The notes: generated from the sequence alone by a model not told the origin. Shown: positions 10,673 to 19,456, counted from the first letter of the stretch. The stretch: DNA of 64,000 nt from a bacterium (GCA_965219955.1 OZ244799.1:1984001-2048000); one strand, 5' to 3'. A program made the numbers and translations.

Positions 10673-12171
10673 ACGAAACGCTCGATATGCGCGAGATGAT
10701 CGAGGAGATGGGGGAAGAACTCACCCCCGGCCAGCGCGTTTGGCGGCATCTGCAGAAAAACCGCATGGCGATGGTGGGCGGCGTCGTGCTGGTGCTGTTC
10801 TTCGCCCTGGCGGCGATCGGCTTCGTCAATTCCGCCCTCATGAGCGAGCCGATGTTCGACGCGAACGTCGTGCGCCTGCCGGACAAGCTCATGGCCCCCT
10901 TCTCCGCCCCGAACGAAAACCAGGTGCCCAGGGAAAACCTCCCGCGCCTGGGGATTTACGTGTTCGGCACCGACGATCTGGGCCGCGACGTTTTCGCCAG
11001 GATGCTGGAGGGCACCTTCATCTCGATGTCGGTGGGCTTCGTGGCCATCGGCATCGCCACCCTGCTGGGGGTCGCGATAGGCGGAATCGCAGGCTTTTAT
11101 GGAGAAATCAAACCGAGCGGCGCGCCCCTGTTCGGCTTCATCGGAGCGGGCCTCACCGGCTACGCCGCCTGGAACGAGCTGGGATTCCTGGCTCTCCTGT
11201 TCGCCATGGCGGGCGCAGGCCTGGGGTTACTGGTGCGCCGCGACGGGCGCTCCCTGTTCCTGGAGGGCATGATCTTCGGCGCGCTTCTGGGCCTGGCGCT
11301 CGGCCCGTTCGAGCCGTTCGGGTTCAGCGGCTTCACCTCCGACTCAGGCCTCAGCGTGCGCACGCCCTACTGGCGCGAGGGGTTCCTGGGCGCGGCCTGC
11401 CTCGTAGCACTCGCCTCCTTCGGCGGGGCGCAGGGCGCGAACGCGGAGGAAAGCGCGGCGGACGGCGTCTCCCTGAGCGCGGTGTTCGGCGGAGGCCTCA
11501 CCTATTTCCTCTTGTTCCTCGCAGGCCTCTACCTCGCCTATCCGGGCCAAACGGCGCACCTGTGGACGAGCGTCGCGGGGGCGGTGGCCTTTGTCTATCT
11601 CTACCAGAGATTCGAGGTCACAGAGCTTCTTCAAAGATTCCGGCTGCCCAAGGTGGACATCATCTACACCACTATCGTGGACGTGCAGCTTTCGTTCCCC
11701 TCGTTTTTCGTGCTCCTGACCATCCTCGCCCTCGTGACGCCCAACATCTGGATCATCATGGTGGTCATCGGCGTCCTGGGCTGGGTGGGGCCCGCGCGTT
11801 TCGTGCGCGCGGAGATCCTCTCGCTGAGGGAGCAGCCCTTCGTGGAGTCCGCGCGCGCCTCGGGCGGCTCGGACAGGCTCATCATCTTCCGCTACCTGAT
11901 CCCCAATTCGCTGGCGCCCGTCCTTGTATCGGCCACCATCGGCATCGCGGGCGCGATCCTGACGGAAGCGAGCCTGAGCTTTCTGGGCTTCGGCGTTCCG
12001 CCGCCCCAGGCGAGCTGGGGGAACATCTTCTCGGACGGGAAGAAATACATCTTCGACGCCCCCTGGCTCACCTTCATACCGGGTTCGGCGATACTCGTCG
12101 TCATGCTCGCCTTCAACCTCTTCGGCGAGGGCCTGCGCGACGCCATGAACCCCAGGGCGAACAGCAGGTAG
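10669..12171 (+). CDS. ABC peptide transporter permease (OppC/DppC-like) with a large membrane insertion
   Basis: FGTDDLGRD, ARFVRAEILSLRE, EASLSFLG and FNLFGEGLRDA motifs; start at ATG 10669 overlapping the upstream stop. Confidence 0.9.
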   Translation: MNETLDMREMIEEMGEELTPGQRVWRHLQKNRMAMVGGVVLVLFFALAAIGFVNSALMSEPMFDANVVRLPDKLMAPFSAPNENQVPRENLPRLGIYVFGTDDLGRDVFARMLEGTFISMSVGFVAIGIATLLGVAIGGIAGFYGEIKPSGAPLFGFIGAGLTGYAAWNELGFLALLFAMAGAGLGLLVRRDGRSLFLEGMIFGALLGLALGPFEPFGFSGFTSDSGLSVRTPYWREGFLGAACLVALASFGGAQGANAEESAADGVSLSAVFGGGLTYFLLFLAGLYLAYPGQTAHLWTSVAGAVAFVYLYQRFEVTELLQRFRLPKVDIIYTTIVDVQLSFPSFFVLLTILALVTPNIWIIMVVIGVLGWVGPARFVRAEILSLREQPFVESARASGGSDRLIIFRYLIPNSLAPVLVSATIGIAGAILTEASLSFLGFGVPPPQASWGNIFSDGKKYIFDAPWLTFIPGSAILVVMLAFNLFGEGLRDAMNPRANSR

Positions 12172-12279: not shown

Positions 12280-12366
12280 GCCCAAGTGGTGGAATTGGTA
12301 GACACGCTAGCTTGAGGGGCTAGTGGGGGCAACCCCGTGTCGGTTCGAGTCCGGCCTTGGGCACCA
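12280..12366 (+). tRNA. tRNA-Leu (anticodon GAG)
   Basis: GCCCAAG/CTTGGGC acceptor stem, CCA end, anticodon arm CTAGC-TTGAGGG-GCTAG, long variable arm, GGTTCGAGTCC T-loop. Confidence 0.97.
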
Positions 12367-12549: not shown

Positions 12550-12756
12550 ATGAGCCGATACATCTGGATTTGCCCGAAATGCCTGCACCAGTTTCAGGGA
12601 CACGTGTTCGATGAGGGCACCTACGGAAGCGGCCCCATCTGCAACGCCTGCTGCGTGGAACTGGAATTCGTGCCCGGAGAGGACGCGGCGGATGAACCCG
12701 CGTTCAAGGAACAACGGCGTGAGGCGGAGGTTCGCGCGTCTGACCCCGCCGCCTAG
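12550..12756 (+). CDS. Small zinc-ribbon-like hypothetical protein
   Basis: AGGAGA RBS; CPKC...CNAC cysteine pairs. Confidence 0.6.
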   Translation: MSRYIWICPKCLHQFQGHVFDEGTYGSGPICNACCVELEFVPGEDAADEPAFKEQRREAEVRASDPAA

Positions 12757-12827
12757 GGCCGCAGGGCGTGATGCCCCCGGCATTCCTCACCGAAGCAAAG
12801 CGCCGGGAAATCCCGCATTCTGTCGAA
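12753..12827 (-). pseudogene. Duplicated 3' end of def (copy 3)
   Basis: Translates FDRMRDFPALCFGEECRGHHALRP*, versus IDRMRDFSTLCFGEEYRRYHAPRPKED* at the end of def. Confidence 0.85.
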
Positions 12828-12842
12828 AATACGAATAATCCG

Positions 12843-12956
12843 TCATTCAGCCAGTTTTTTGTAAAGCGGCGCAAACCTCTCGTGGCTCGCCTGATAGGCC
12901 GCTATGACGCGGGCGCGCGGCCTGCTCCCCCTGCGCTTCTCGATCAAGTCGGCCAG
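12843..12956 (-). pseudogene. Duplicated 3' half of the antitoxin gene at 14771-15001
   Basis: 114-bp ungapped match to 14771-14884 with 9 mismatches counted by eye; followed on the minus strand by a copy of the doc start (ATG ACG GAT TAT). Confidence 0.88.
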
Positions 12957-13280
12957 CGGCGCGGCAGGCTTGATGAATCCGGCGCGGCCTCGATGGGTGG
13001 CGGGGAAAGGGAACCGACTACGCGGCGGGGAGAAAATTTTTTTCCGCTCCCCTTCATCGGGGGAAATCGGAAAAACAGGGCTTCATGCTCCATGCCGAAA
13101 GCGGAAAGGGATTTTTTTATGCGCGCCGTCAATTTCATTTCATGGCCGGGCGGGCATGATATGATCTCGCCCGGATGATAACGGCGCATGGGCCGCTGAT
13201 GGCACCGCCGCCGCTTGCCGATAGGGCACACTTCGGAGGGGTGATCGACGAACTACGCAGACAAATTGGAGGCACAAAAA

Positions 13281-14039
13281 ATGTCGCAACATCTAATAGT
13301 TGATGTGGATAGTTGGCCAACCCATAAAGGAAACGAGAAACCGTATCTGGATGTTGCAATTCCTTCTGTCTTGGAGTCTGTCTTCTGCGCGATGGTAGGT
13401 GCTTTCGGTAAGTTACCTGACGAACGAATTGAAGTCTCTTGGTGGAAAGATTTATCCAGAGTCCTTTCAGATTCCTGTTCTTATCAAATCCGTATTAATG
13501 CTCAAAATAGGAATTGGTGCGAATACGTCTATCAGTTCTCGCACAAACTGTGCCATGTAATGACGAACTACAATCCCAACAAAGTAAATCGCCATACTTG
13601 GTTTGAGGAAAGTCTTTGCGAAATGGCGTCATTGTTCGTTTTGTCTAGATTATCGGAGACCTGGAAAACCAACCCGCCTGTGAATGTCCGTGGAGCTGCC
13701 GAATTTGCACCTAGCCACGCAAAATACTGTGAGGATTTCGCAGACAAACACCTGACACCAGAACGCAAAAACTTACCAGGATGGTTATCATTAAATCTTG
13801 AGGATATGCAAAACAATCCTTATCTTCGCTGCCGCAATGCAGTTGTAGCCCTTGCCCTCCTGGATCATTTTCGGAGTGACCCTTCTCTTTGGGCGGACTG
13901 CGGATTTATAAATTACTGGAATGTTGAAAACGACAAAACTTTTGAAGACTATTTGAATTCATGGGAAAAGTGTTTGAAATGCAATGACTCTGATTCGGTT
14001 CGAGTACCTGCCCTCGTTAGAAAAATGTTTTACGAGTAG
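13281..14039 (+). CDS. Hypothetical protein, AT-rich, metallopeptidase-like with degenerate HExxH
   Basis: GGAGG RBS before ATG 13281; YQFSHKLCHV...WFEESLCE pattern; visibly lower GC than flanks. Confidence 0.7.
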   Translation: MSQHLIVDVDSWPTHKGNEKPYLDVAIPSVLESVFCAMVGAFGKLPDERIEVSWWKDLSRVLSDSCSYQIRINAQNRNWCEYVYQFSHKLCHVMTNYNPNKVNRHTWFEESLCEMASLFVLSRLSETWKTNPPVNVRGAAEFAPSHAKYCEDFADKHLTPERKNLPGWLSLNLEDMQNNPYLRCRNAVVALALLDHFRSDPSLWADCGFINYWNVENDKTFEDYLNSWEKCLKCNDSDSVRVPALVRKMFYE

Positions 14040-14272
14040 CAAGTCGTGAAGATAAACCAGTTGATCGCAAGTCTTGAATCCGCGCCCGTGGGCGACGGCG
14101 ATCTTATGGACGAGCCGTTCCTGTGATAGCCATATTAGCGTCGCCCCCTTCATGCTGCTCTTGCACCCTGGTATTGTGTACGGGCCTTTCCCTTGATGTG
14201 ATGGCGTGAAGTCCGGGTTTGGACAAGCCCTGTGCCTAGACATCGTGTGAGCCCGAGCGTGGACCGGGTGCT

Positions 14273-14353
14273 CTACTCGGCCTCTTCTTTGGGCCGCGGC
14301 GCGTGATGCCTGCGGTATTCCTCCCCGAAGCAAAGAGAAGCGAAATCCCCCAT
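14273..14353 (-). pseudogene. Duplicated 3' end of def (copy 2)
   Basis: Translates MGDFASLCFGEEYRRHHAPRPKEEAE*, homologous to the def C-terminus. Confidence 0.85.
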
Positions 14354-14390
14354 CCCATCCAAGCCGCTCGGCCCGCCTGAGTAATCGTAA

Positions 14391-14774
14391 TCATTCCGGA
14401 GCATCAAGCCGGACGTTCATTCTGAGCCAATCTCTCAATCGCTCGAAGATGAATGAATCGGTTTCATACAGGCCGATGATGAAGTTATAGGTATTTTCGG
14501 CGTCCGCCGTAATCCACACCCCGTTGATCGCGAGAAACGTATAGGTGACGGCGAAAGCCGTGCGCTTGTTCCCGTCGACGAACGGGTGATTACTCTCCAT
14601 ACTCTCCCAGAGCGCGGCGGCCTCCTCAATCAGATCGGCGTAGTAGCCCGTCTGTGGACGAAACAGTGCGGCTTCAAGCAGACCCGCATCACGCACGCCT
14701 TCGTCCCCGCCGTATCGCTCAATCTGGTCTTGGTGGATTGCAAGAACTTCAACGAGGGTCGGATAGTCCGTCAT
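14391..14774 (-). CDS. doc: Doc/Fic family type II toxin
   Basis: HPFVDGNKRTA Fic/Doc motif; GVRDAGLLEAAL N-terminal motif. Confidence 0.92.
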   Translation of the reverse strand: MTDYPTLVEVLAIHQDQIERYGGDEGVRDAGLLEAALFRPQTGYYADLIEEAAALWESMESNHPFVDGNKRTAFAVTYTFLAINGVWITADAENTYNFIIGLYETDSFIFERLRDWLRMNVRLDAPE

Positions 14775-15001
14775 TCAGCGAGTTTTTTGTAAAGCGGCGC
14801 AAACCTTTCATGGCTCGCCTGATAGACCGCCATGATGTGGGCGCGCGGCCTGCTCCCCTTGCGCTTCTCGATCAGGTCGGCCAGAGCCTCATCCACCAGG
14901 GTCTGAAGCTGCCGCCCCTCGCTCCGCGCAAGGCTGCGGACGGCGGCCAGAATTTCCGAATTCACCTGGGTTGCGAATTTCTCTCGCTCTAGGGTCGCCA
15001 T
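14771..15001 (-). CDS. Putative antitoxin (RHH-like) partner of Doc
   Basis: 76 aa, ATGA overlap with the toxin, KFATQV...VDEALADLIE RHH-like pattern. Confidence 0.8.
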   Translation of the reverse strand: MATLEREKFATQVNSEILAAVRSLARSEGRQLQTLVDEALADLIEKRKGSRPRAHIMAVYQASHERFAPLYKKLAE

Positions 15002-15024
15002 AGGGCACCTCCATTCTTAGGCGA

Positions 15025-15054
15025 AATTTATCATGAAATATCATGAATTGTCAA
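15025..15054 (-). promoter_or_regulatory. TA promoter with tandem TCATGA palindromic operators
   Basis: TTGACA on the minus strand at 15049-15054; TCATGA at 15031 and 15041 between the -35 and -10 elements. Confidence 0.6.
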
Positions 15055-15095
15055 GAAAACAGACGAATGGCCTCTTTGACTTTCGTCTCAACCAC

Positions 15096-15665
15096 TCAGG
15101 GTCGGGCTTTCTTGATGCGCCACTGCTTGAGCTTCGCCTCGGTGGACGCGCACGCCGCGAGCGCGAGATCGCGCGACATGAACGGCCCGGCCGACCTGCT
15201 TGCGGCGCCCGCGACGAGGCAAAGCGTCGGGTCTCCGCCGGGGCGGAACTCCATCGCCGCAGAGTCGTAATCGAAGTCTTGGCCTGTGGCGTTCTTCGCG
15301 CAATCCAACAGCCCAATCGTTACCCCGGCTGCGGCCGGCGCCAGAAGCGCCGCGCATTTCCCGGAAAATGTGGCCGAAGCGATCCGCCGCGCCGCCTCCT
15401 CGTAGCGGAACTGAACGTCGCCGCCCCTCGGCTTGCACGAGTGCGTATGCAGCCTATCGCTGAATCCTCGTCCTCGGGTATCGATGCACCAGCCAAGCTT
15501 GTCCTGTTCGTCCAGATTGTCCGCCAGGTAGATGACCGGGGCGGGCGTCCTAAGGTCGGGCGGCGCCGCATACGCTGCTTTCGGGAGAACCAACAGCAGG
15601 AGAAGAACCAGGTGCGCGAGCGTCTTGACGGCCGAGTGGGCGCCTGTAGCTGCGGTCATCGTCAT
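15096..15665 (-). CDS. Secreted ricin-type beta-trefoil lectin-like protein
   Basis: Signal peptide; repeated C-x-D/L...C subdomains (WCID..HSCK, KC..LLDC, LCL..LAAC..QW); AGGAGG RBS before ATG 15665. Confidence 0.65.
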   Translation of the reverse strand: MTMTAATGAHSAVKTLAHLVLLLLLVLPKAAYAAPPDLRTPAPVIYLADNLDEQDKLGWCIDTRGRGFSDRLHTHSCKPRGGDVQFRYEEAARRIASATFSGKCAALLAPAAAGVTIGLLDCAKNATGQDFDYDSAAMEFRPGGDPTLCLVAGAASRSAGPFMSRDLALAACASTEAKLKQWRIKKARP

Positions 15666-15753
15666 TTCCGGATTCCTCCTGCATTCCATGACTCACCGTA
15701 TCGGCCATGCCGATGCGGGAGAAAACCAAGCTGACCTGCTTCGCCTGCCCCCC

Positions 15754-16281
15754 TCAATCCTCTTTCGGCCTCGGGGCGTGGTATCTGCGATATTCCTCGC
15801 CGAAGCAGAGCGTCGAGAAATCGCGCATCCTGTCGATGAATATCAATCCATCGAGATGGTCGTATTCATGCTGGCACACGCGCGCGGCGAAGCCCTCGAG
15901 CTCCTCCGCATAGACGTTCCCCTCATGGTCCTGCGCTTCCAGCCGCACGCGGTCGTTGCGCGGCACGCGGCCGTGGATATCGGGGACGCTGAGACAACCC
16001 TCCCATTCCTCCCAACCCTCGTTCCCCAAGGGCGTGAGCTTCGGGTTCACGGCAAAACGCAGCGTTTCCTCATCGTCGGGGTCGAACTGCATGACGAACA
16101 GCCTGATCCCCAAGTGCACCTGGGGAGCGGCGAGGCCAACGCCCGCATATTCCACCATCGTCTCGAACATGTCCTCGATGATTTCCGCAAGTTCGGGACC
16201 CCCAAGATACTCGGGCTCGACCTCGCTCGCCTTCCGGCGCAGGACGGGGTGGCCCATGCGGGCGACCTTTAATATGGGCAT
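15754..16281 (-). CDS. def: Peptide deformylase
   Basis: GVGLAAPQ, EGCLS and QHEYDHLDG motifs. Confidence 0.97.
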   Translation of the reverse strand: MPILKVARMGHPVLRRKASEVEPEYLGGPELAEIIEDMFETMVEYAGVGLAAPQVHLGIRLFVMQFDPDDEETLRFAVNPKLTPLGNEGWEEWEGCLSVPDIHGRVPRNDRVRLEAQDHEGNVYAEELEGFAARVCQHEYDHLDGLIFIDRMRDFSTLCFGEEYRRYHAPRPKED

Positions 16282-18034: not shown

Positions 18035-18350
18035 GGGGTTGTTGAAAAAGCCCCGTGGAGTGATTTTGGTTGAGCGCACGCTTTTGAAGTTCACTCCCCC
18101 CTTGAGGGGGAGTCGAAGAGCTGAGGGCGTAAGCCCGAAAGCGATTCGGTGGGGGGTATAATTCGGACTGGCGATAAAACGCACTTTACCCCCCACCGAT
18201 TCAGCCTTCGCACAAACCGCTCGGCTTCATCGACTCCCCCTCAAGGGGGGAGTGGTTGGCTGGCGCTTAGCAAAGGAGGAGTAAAGTTTCATCCCTCCAT
18301 GGTCGACTCCATATCTGGAATCACGAAATCAGGATTTTTTCAACAACACC
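18035..18350. mobile_element. MITE-like element E1 with REP-like core
   Basis: TIRs GGGGTTGTTGAAAAA / TTTTTCAACAACACC; 163-bp palindromic core at 18092-18254. Confidence 0.75.
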
Positions 18351-18464: not shown

Positions 18465-19148
18465 ATGGCCGGTACCCGACCGGAACACTCGCTGGACGAG
18501 AAACATGAAACCTGCCCCCTGTGCGGGGCGGACGAGGCCGCGCTTTATCTTCATGCCGACGGGAGGGACTATTTTCAGTGTCCCCTCTGCCGCCTCATTT
18601 TCGTGCCGCCGGAGTTCTGGCCCGCACCCCAAATCGAGAAAGAGAGATACGAGCAACACCAGAATTCAGGCTCCGATGCGGGCTACGTCGCCTTTCTCAA
18701 GCAATTGAGCGAGCCTCTGGCTACAATGCTGCCAGAAGGCGCGCGGGGTCTTGATTTCGGCGCGGGGCCTGCGTCGGACGGGCGCCCCGTTCTGTGCGAG
18801 TTGTTCCGGGGCGAGGGCTTCGAGTGCCTGCCCTACGATCCGTTTTTCTTCCCGGAAATGCCGGACGGCCCTTTTGATTTCATCGCCGCCAGCGAGACGT
18901 TCGAGCATCTGAGGCATCCTGTGGAGGAGATCGAGAAAATTCATGAAAACCTCAGAACGGGCGGTCTTCTCGGCGTGATGACGGCGTTCTGGAAGGAGGC
19001 GCTATTCATGAACAACTGGCACTACAGGCGCGACTTCACCCATCTTTGCTTCTACCGGATGGAGAGTTTCGCGTGGATTCAGGAGCATTTCGGCTTCGCC
19101 TGCCGCTGGACGGATGAGCGCCGCGTCATCATTCTGGAGAAACTTTAA
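18465..19148 (+). CDS. Class I SAM-dependent methyltransferase with N-terminal Zn ribbon
   Basis: CPLC..CPLC, LDFGAGP, YDPFF and ETFEH motifs. Confidence 0.88.
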   Translation: MAGTRPEHSLDEKHETCPLCGADEAALYLHADGRDYFQCPLCRLIFVPPEFWPAPQIEKERYEQHQNSGSDAGYVAFLKQLSEPLATMLPEGARGLDFGAGPASDGRPVLCELFRGEGFECLPYDPFFFPEMPDGPFDFIAASETFEHLRHPVEEIEKIHENLRTGGLLGVMTAFWKEALFMNNWHYRRDFTHLCFYRMESFAWIQEHFGFACRWTDERRVIILEKL

Positions 19149-19195: not shown

Positions 19196-19456
19196 GGGGT
19201 TGTTGAAAAACCGGAACTCTGGATTTGTCGTATGTAACCGACCGACGAGAGAGTCAAATCACTCCCCCCTTGAGGGGGAGTCGAAGAGCTAAGGGCGTAA
19301 GCCCGAGAGCGATTCGGTGGGGGGTATAATTCGGACTGGCGATAAAACGCATTTTACCCCCCACCGATTCAGCCTTCGCACAAACCGCTCGGCTTCATCG
19401 ACTCCCCCTCAAGGGGGGAGTGATTCCTCTCTCCTCGGGCCTTTTTCAACAACACC
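19196..19456. mobile_element. MITE-like element E2 with REP-like core
   Basis: Same TIRs as E1; core 19260-19422 differs from the E1 core at 3 positions. Confidence 0.75.

Follow-up and report, generated by a model that had tools for sequence, protein, structure and literature searches.

How the end of one gene comes to be repeated along a chromosome, with accessory genes lodged between the copies, is the question raised by a 64,000-nt window of bacterial DNA (GCA_965219955.1 OZ244799.1:1984001-2048000; coordinates without a locus name are positions in this window). The gene is def, which encodes peptide deformylase, and an earlier note on this DNA had taken three copies of its 3' end as the trace of repeated tail-replacing insertions, with def acting as a serial integration site. 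We tentatively favor a reading in which an old and now immobile array of two cassettes sits at the def 3' end, and in which the cassettes would be decayed remnants of two related tail-replacing elements, similar to the cis-mobilizable elements (CIMEs) of streptococci.

A repeat search of the window returned one family, made up of three 72-nt direct copies at 12756-12827 (the reference), 14291-14362 (79% identical) and 15766-15837 (76%), and an nhmmer profile built from the three tails found no fourth copy in the 64 kb. Tail copy 1 (15755..15839) consists of the last ~26 codons of def and was delimited with the profile, as was the decayed tail copy 3 (12752..12829); tail copy 2 (14283..14363) lies in a frame that is open to a stop at 14273 and retains a def-like C-terminus, LCFGEEYRRHHAPRPKEEAE. 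All three are on the minus strand. Def itself is intact (15754..16281, minus strand, 175 aa; Pfam PF01327, E=2.6e-49) and full length, covering profile positions 2-152 of 156. When the 72-nt tail of intact def was slid along both strands (127,858 positions), the two extra copies gave 55 and 53 matches, against 39/72 for the next best score in the window and 42/72 for the best in 100 shuffled windows, and the tail repeats are therefore far beyond chance. The copies are also too diverged, at 73-79% identity, to be an assembly artifact, which disposes of the misassembly alternative that the earlier note had listed. Its three copies in one orientation were recovered by the repeat search, by nhmmer and by the sliding match against shuffles, and its translations and coordinates were correct; its figure of about 80% for copy 3 against def was slightly generous, the values being 76% over 72 nt and 73% over 78 aligned columns. 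All tails start within a few bases of one def codon (the Asp of IDRMRDF), and the window copies are spaced 1475 and 1535 nt apart with genes between them.

The tails delimit two units. Cassette 1, next to def, carries a ricin-B lectin gene (15096..15689, minus strand) followed by a ribbon-helix-helix (RHH) antitoxin gene (14771..15001, minus) and an intact doc toxin gene (14391..14774, minus) beside tail 2. Cassette 2 carries an AT-rich gene (13266..14039, plus), which is separated from tail 2 by a spacer of ~160 nt unique to the window (14121..14282), and it ends in a remnant (12832..12956, minus) in which the 3' half of a second RHH antitoxin gene and the first doc codons are fused to tail 3; ~300 nt of non-coding DNA lie between this remnant and the AT-rich gene. 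The remnant forms a second repeat beside copy 3, being 91% identical over 125 nt to 14760-14884, where the antitoxin gene's 3' half and the first doc codons lie, and it matches antitoxin residues 40-76 at 86% (tblastn). The cargo is as previously described, a lectin with a toxin-antitoxin pair and then an AT-rich hypothetical gene; the 125-nt antitoxin repeat, and a zinc-ribbon gene that overlaps the end of copy 3, were absent from that description.

Relatives were drawn from a def protein search of genome contigs, which gave 80 def loci, four of them close (L001-L004) and 76 distant. The def proteins of the close relatives are 84% (L001, a complete metagenome-assembled genome (MAG) chromosome), 83% (L002, a Nitrospinota MAG whose contig ends ~2 kb after def), 75% (L003) and 62% (L004, a Nitrospinota MAG) identical to that of the window, and synteny among them is kept on both sides of the interval between def and tRNA-Leu; the other 76 are 49-56% identical and nearly all labelled as Acidobacteriota groups. 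The history given below was drawn from five genomes only, the window and L001-L004. Comparison of the def-to-tRNA-Leu interval across relatives had been proposed as a check, and the interval proved not to be invariant, occurring in empty, one-cassette and two-cassette states. In L003, def runs directly into a convergent zinc-ribbon gene with no cassette, and in L004 the def stop (open reading frame (ORF) end 10585) and tRNA-Leu (11121) are 535 nt apart, with neither zinc-ribbon gene nor cargo between them; tblastn found no cargo homologue in either. L002 has one cassette, the lectin with its toxin-antitoxin pair, in the order def, lectin, antitoxin, doc, second tail, zinc-ribbon gene. L001 has two, as does the window, in the order def, lectin, antitoxin, second tail, AT-rich gene with an extra 116-aa ORF, antitoxin fragment, third tail, zinc-ribbon gene. 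There is accordingly one tail in L004 and in L003, two in L002 and three in L001 and in the window. Tail 1 of the window and the working def ends of L001 and L002 are 86-94% identical.

When each of the 80 loci was searched with its own tail, extra matches appeared in four and extra tails with cargo in L001 and L002 only, and the five cargo and neighbor proteins had no tblastn match in the 76 distant loci. With extra tails and cargo at only these two of the 80 loci, a role of def as a serial integration site is not established outside this small clade. In L005 the extra match was one weak 14-aa match (E=0.006) 9 kb upstream and was taken as chance. A Vicinamibacterales MAG (L031:10474-10724) has 2.6 tandem copies of a 97-nt unit spanning the def stop, with 89% matches and no cargo, and def tails can therefore duplicate by simple slippage, without a mobile element, in another phylum. 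Simple head-to-tail tandem duplication of this kind was rejected for the window, given the spacing of its copies and the genes between them. The def of L004 (L004:10001-10585) bears a 20-residue acidic C-terminal extension (…PKPEESEEGEDPKGAEAPEEGEG), so that the length of the def C-terminus varies across the clade.

The zinc-ribbon gene (12550..12756, plus strand, a 68-aa ORF convergent with def) is present in L001, L002 and L003 (tblastn) and is the ancestral downstream neighbor of def. Its 3' end is overlapped by the distal tail over 5 nt in the window, 12 nt in L001 and 8 nt in L002, and in L003 the working def and the convergent zinc-ribbon gene share 31 nt at their 3' ends. Because the distal tail keeps the overlap seen for the intact L003 def, we take copy 3 to be the displaced ancestral chromosomal def tail, now decayed. 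At a Lys codon of def, tail 3 reads TAG in frame, with GCGG next to it; the distal tail of L002 does the same, and in both the string CCCTAGGCGG stands at the site of the Pro-Lys codons of working tails. In its 5' part, tail 3 also has CGG and CCG in common with the L002 distal tail, and this speaks for its being ancestral over its whole length. We do not rely on the alternative that tails 2 and 3 form a reciprocal mosaic created by a crossover inside the tail; it draws on few sites, with 8 differences in codons 1-8 and 8 in codons 9-26 for tail 2, and 4 and 14 for tail 3.

The tails are ~80 nt long, and each comparison between them rests on 16-25 differences. Tail 2 and tail 1 differ at 6/0/13 sites by codon position 1/2/3; zero second-position changes in 19 has a probability of (2/3)^19 = 4.5e-4 if positions are hit equally, and against working def tails tail 2 shows 0-1 second-position changes in 16-19 differences. 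Between tail 3 and the distal tail of L002, differences fall 5/6/6 over the three positions. Measured against the L002 working tail over codons 9-26, tail 2 has 8 differences (6 synonymous codons, 1 non-synonymous) and tail 3 has 14 (7 non-synonymous codons). Because its substitutions are of coding type, with few second-position changes, tail 2 appears to have evolved as, or been copied from, a working def end. Decay follows position: it is furthest advanced in tail 3, less so in tail 2 and least in tail 1.

The array seems to be old and to have passed down by vertical inheritance, and its cassettes appear orthologous. Over 6509 flanking columns any two of the window, L001 and L002 are 90.9-91.0% identical, and over 2099 columns covering SDR, HAD and def they are 86.6-86.8% identical, with a branching order that is unsettled (informative sites 90/87/75 in the flanks and 27/34/38 in SDR/HAD/def), and the lectin-antitoxin block is 80-83% identical among the three over 943 columns. 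Since that block, and the AT-rich block together with its junctions, are common to genomes ~91% identical in their flanks, we can make out no more than two gains, both old, and no continuing turnover. Most simply, one acquisition would have preceded the split of the window, L001 and L002, and vertical descent followed; as for the second unit, either the lineage of the window and L001 acquired it or L002 lost it. The earlier note's reading, repeated tail-replacing insertions at def, is only partly supported: the interval does vary, and cargo turnover goes no further than at most two old gains.

The anatomy of the locus is the classical one of integrative elements in that the 3'-end repeats are on the same strand, the target is kept intact by a replacement tail, and relatives have empty sites; an element-encoded recombinase and an identical attachment (att) core are lacking. 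In each unit an antitoxin-doc module stands last, next to a tail, and a single blastn alignment takes in doc, the spacer and tail 2 of the window, collinear with doc, the spacer and the distal tail in L002. By tail 3, doc has been removed between two short strings that resemble each other; in L002 these are ATGACGGA at the start of doc and CAGACGGG just past its stop. The same doc-deletion junction occurs at 12832-12846 in the window and at L001:11490-11510 and 13485-13510, and this clean excision left an orphan antitoxin, full length in L001 and a fragment in the window. The window and L001 also agree in the junction at which the AT-rich block meets the antitoxin fragment.

If two related elements were inserted, as we favor, the ancestral state, still present in L003, would have been def in convergent overlap with the zinc-ribbon gene. 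Before the window, L001 and L002 split, an element of ~1.4 kb carrying the ricin-B lectin, the RHH-Doc pair and a replacement tail would have inserted ~85 nt before the def end; because the element is proposed to have supplied the replacement tail, def would have stayed intact and the original tail would have been stranded by the zinc-ribbon gene. Between them would lie another unit built on the same plan, with its own def tail, foreign AT-rich cargo and an antitoxin-doc remnant by the distal tail. Both units would belong to one family of small tail-replacing integrative elements, accumulated by accretion, with a recombinase that acted in trans or has since been lost. Later decay would have deleted the second doc, truncated the second antitoxin and mutated the displaced tails, and homologous recombination between the repeats would have reshuffled the array, giving rise to a 403-nt repeat in L001. 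That a site-specific recombinase was at work, and which insertion came first, are inferences. What speaks for this reading is the classical anatomy, tails that all begin at nearly one point, a common plan in the two units, relatives with empty sites, and the coding pattern of tail 2.

Several observations weigh against it. No integrase, recombinase or transposase family was found (Pfam) among translations of 87 window ORFs (10 + 56 + 21), in agreement with the earlier note's statement that the window encodes no integrase, or among 10 ORFs of the L001 and L003 intervals, and no integrase-bearing relative of the units was found among the 80 def loci. The units are only ~1.4-1.5 kb long. The window tails, at 73-79% identity, share no exact core, their longest exact runs being 8, 8 and 11 nt, and the antitoxin fragment by tail 3 is more conserved (91% to the full copy) than the tails are mutually (82.5%). 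The cassettes are seemingly orthologous in three about equidistant genomes, with no recent mobility seen, and the cargo-less tandem of L031 shows that a def tail can be duplicated without a mobile element. In L001, finally, the 403-nt repeat passes through the tail into the chromosomal zinc-ribbon gene, which crossover at an att site does not predict.

This L001 repeat (direct, 93.8% identical, 11326-11727 and 13319-13721) flanks the AT-rich cargo and runs from the antitoxin 3' half (~180 nt) across the junction left by the doc deletion and through the tail to 140 nt of the zinc-ribbon gene. Repeats that extend past the tail point to homologous recombination or duplication and away from site-specific integration, and Campbell-type homologous insertion, segmental duplication or gene conversion explains the L001 repeat. 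The main rival, which we rate as less likely, is that only one founding lectin-toxin-antitoxin insertion took place and that the second unit is a duplicated junction (antitoxin 3' half, doc, tail and zinc-ribbon start) that captured AT-rich DNA; the duplication could have come about through unequal crossing-over, or a circle carrying this segment could have integrated by Campbell-type homologous recombination. The 403-nt repeat flanking the AT-rich cargo is the exact signature of such an event, to which can be added the 125-nt antitoxin repeat (91%) next to tail 3 in the window and the doc-deletion and cargo/antitoxin-fragment junctions common to the window and L001; an integrase is neither needed nor present. 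A middle tail with a working 3' part would moreover result if tail 1 recombined with the displaced tail in an unequal crossover, which fits the tail differences.

The surroundings of tail 2 in the window are harder to reconcile with a duplicated junction. At the position of the first L001 repeat the window has an intact doc, a distinct tail 2 and a unique spacer, and at the position of that spacer L001 has instead a 140-nt 3' fragment of the zinc-ribbon gene; the two have therefore diverged here by more than point mutation. Positions 14100-14300, which contain the spacer, matched only themselves in blastn against the window and the 80 loci and showed no zinc-ribbon likeness, so that tail 2 is followed by ~160 nt of unmatched sequence where a duplicated junction would have zinc-ribbon sequence. 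Tail 2 is only 76% identical to either neighboring tail, whereas the adjacent antitoxin copies are ~90% identical, and it ends in PKEEAE, like L003 (PKKAE) and unlike the other window tails. The captured foreign DNA would have to begin exactly at the 3' edge of the tail, a coincidence that a sibling element does not need, and the founding tail duplication would still be unexplained. In L001 itself, the 403-nt repeat created a chimeric 86-aa ORF (L001:11577-11837, minus strand), a fusion of 28 residues that derive from the AT-rich block's end with 50-odd C-terminal residues of the zinc-ribbon protein.

An unlikely further alternative is that no recombinase was ever involved. DNA taken up by transformation would have been anchored by homology in the body of def, its other end joined illegitimately or via the displaced tail, and the cassettes would then have spread among relatives via the flanking homology of def and the tails. 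Homology-facilitated illegitimate recombination is known from naturally transformable bacteria. The lack of integrase families in the 87 window and 10 interval ORFs suits this explanation, as do the length of the repeats (~85 nt and more, without a discrete identical core) and the homologous recombination that the L001 repeat shows acting at this locus. However, two independent illegitimate joins are not expected at the same def codon, and the tails start within a few bases of one another; 85 nt would, at today's 73-79% identity, be a poor RecA-type substrate; and no donor arrangement, in which def is followed by a native lectin-toxin-antitoxin module, occurs in the 80 loci.

We consider it improbable that def, in a Nitrospinota-related clade, ends in a live attachment site of ~85 nt, at which miniature cassettes are moved in trans by a recombinase from another part of the genome or, free of any recombinase, via flanking homology in the def body and the displaced tail. 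Each such cassette might consist of its own def tail, one cargo gene and an RHH-Doc stabilizer, by analogy with the staphylococcal cassette chromosome (SCC) cassettes that lack ccr. Retained att function of the tails seems doubtful because the repeats are 73-79% identical and have no exact core, and nothing shows present-day mobility; the locus is a well-resolved fossil rather than an active system. Were the site live, an essential translation gene would anchor a cassette-capture system not yet described. Chance resemblance or an assembly artifact has next to no probability and was excluded, homologous arrays being present also in two independent public assemblies, L001 and L002.

The cargo of cassette 1 consists of recognizable families. 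The lectin has a hydrophobic N-terminus followed by a ricin-B domain (Pfam PF00652, E=8.9e-8); it is 80-81% aa identical in L001 and L002 and absent from L003, L004 and the other 76 loci. The toxin belongs to the Fic/DOC family (Pfam PF02661, E=3.2e-16) and is probably active, because it carries the motif HPFVDGNKR and is 92% aa identical to the Doc of L002. The antitoxin matches Pfam Antitox_RHH at E=3.5e-4, under the curated cut-off, and its L001 orthologue passes the RHH_3 cut-off. The antitoxin gene comes first and overlaps doc by 4 nt, an RHH-Doc pair with anatomy of the Phd/Doc type, and a promoter scan placed a promoter-like site upstream of it (15054-15025). L001 keeps the antitoxin without doc.

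The AT-rich stretch of cassette 2 is compositionally foreign, at 42-47% G+C compared with 60-70% in the flanks. Its protein matched no Pfam or PADLOC family, is 79% aa identical to the L001 copy and has 73 homologues, one named from an alphaproteobacterium (Albidovulum). In an alignment of 41 sequences of this family His89 is invariant and Glu90, His93 and Glu110 are nearly so, giving the pattern HExxH...E; the window and L001 copies read HKLCH, with the motif Glu replaced by Lys. An AlphaFold2 (AF2) model with a pLDDT of 92.9 gave weak Foldseek matches to M61/M1/M4 peptidases (best E=7e-4, TM 0.36-0.45). We would call it an uncharacterized, gluzincin-like protein with the catalytic Glu replaced in this clade. 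Plasmid occurrences of the protein were limited to four Mesorhizobium plasmids at ~27% identity and gave no evidence of plasmid travel. A search for defense families (PADLOC) returned none for the lectin, antitoxin, zinc-ribbon or AT-rich proteins, and weak candidate-family matches for Doc. The zinc-ribbon protein has a weak match to the treble-clef family DUF4379 (E=1e-4, under the curated cut-off).

The outer landmark of the variable interval is tRNA-Leu (GAG) at 12280..12366 on the plus strand (ARAGORN and the Rfam tRNA model), the sole tRNA in the window, which is 98-100% identical in L001 and L003 and 85% in L004. Rfam at E<=0.1 found nothing but this tRNA within the interval. A classical tRNA-Leu island was rejected, as neither the window nor the L001-L004 intervals hold a repeated tRNA fragment, extra matches being 9-11 nt long at E>=0.066. 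A second variable spot lies between the zinc-ribbon gene and tRNA-Leu, where the window has 183 nt. In L003 (L003:10923-15262) it is occupied by a TmtA-like (Tiamat defense) gene of ~1,450 aa in two overlapping ORFs (PADLOC E=8e-40 and 3e-32), and in L001 (L001:13960-14757) by a gene for a 265-aa Lys/Arg/Ala-rich protein without a family; no tRNA-fragment repeats flank these L003 and L001 inserts by tRNA-Leu. Two kilobases upstream of def, two 167-nt imperfect hairpins that are 98% identical (18091-18257 and 19259-19425) flank a methyltransferase gene (18465-19148). They resemble miniature inverted-repeat transposable elements and are absent from all 80 loci, and their sole Rfam matches were to miRNA-precursor hairpin models, far below gathering scores.

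Protein-coding 3' ends known as landing sites for accessory DNA include prfC, guaA and trmE, which the earlier note had named, and fda. The note had known of no attB site at def; full-text literature searches, with subscription journals and supplementary files outside their scope, likewise found no report naming def as an integration target or attB. If the favored reading is correct, def joins this short list, and does so in an uncultured lineage with hardly known mobile elements. The finding opens no long-standing question. The locus serves as a worked example of how an array ages, in which five genomes display empty, one-cassette and two-cassette states, positional decay of tails, loss of a toxin gene with the antitoxin kept, and homologous recombination overwriting junctions. 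For annotation, short def-like pseudo-ORFs downstream of def mark cassette boundaries.

Integron cassette arrays are series of short, promoterless-looking cassettes at a recurring site, with the integrase IntI, the site attI and the promoter Pc. The window shares with them short cassettes in series separated by a recurring site; unlike integrons, it has no IntI, attI or Pc, and its recurring site is a coding sequence without excess folding. Integron-like folded sites were rejected, the three tails giving z values of -0.79 to +0.89 when folded single-stranded on both strands.

In SCC elements, Ccr serine recombinases act on short repeats. The available portions of papers on SCC and pseudo-SCC elements in staphylococci (PMC11470126, PMC13739063, bioRxiv 10.1101/336396) treat the 3' end of rlmH as a protein-coding landing site and describe serial cassettes behind the 3' end of this intact gene, some without a recombinase of their own and with accessory or defense cargo, in all of which the def array is similar. 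Unlike SCC, the window has neither a recombinase nor a short conserved core, and its units are far smaller.

The islands at ssrA in Dehalococcoides, as presented in accessible parts of PMC3146451, are likewise tandem units after a single-copy essential gene, bounded by 20-bp direct repeats of that gene's 3' end. A conserved integration module with a CcrB-like recombinase is present in 16 islands there, some islands without the module being suggested in that source to be CIMEs or fixed (PMC3146451). The window differs from them in that its target is protein-coding, its repeats are ~85 nt long and it has no integration module. Multiple direct 3'-end repeats have been read as multiple insertions in Legionella islands also, according to excerpts of PMC3864950, where in contrast the target is a tRNA, integrases are present and peptide deformylase figures as island cargo, not as a target.

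The closest counterparts in anatomy to set beside the def array are CIMEs. Pavlovic et al. 2004 reportedly dealt with ICESt1-related elements. The CIMEs of streptococcal integrative and conjugative elements and integrative and mobilizable elements are, in the consulted portions of PMC5704250, small units without integration or transfer genes that stand in tandem and are generally decayed, and an accretion model in three steps is set out there in which decayed elements come to lie in tandem at the 3' end of the target gene; the pattern at def agrees with this model. As in CIMEs (PMC5704250), the units of the window are small, decayed and in tandem, lack genes for integration and transfer, and lie between direct repeats of a housekeeping gene's 3' end, that gene itself being intact; one unit carries a toxin-antitoxin module. 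Unlike CIMEs, the def units have no known integrase-bearing parent or partner, with none in the 80 loci; their repeats are ~85 nt long and 73-79% identical, with no exact core; the array is common to three species-level genomes and apparently fixed; and in L001 the repeat pair runs into flanking chromosomal DNA. Tandem, decayed units without a recombinase behind the 3' end of a housekeeping gene are a known arrangement, represented by CIMEs, by pseudo-SCC elements at rlmH and by the ssrA islands, to which the array at def can be compared.

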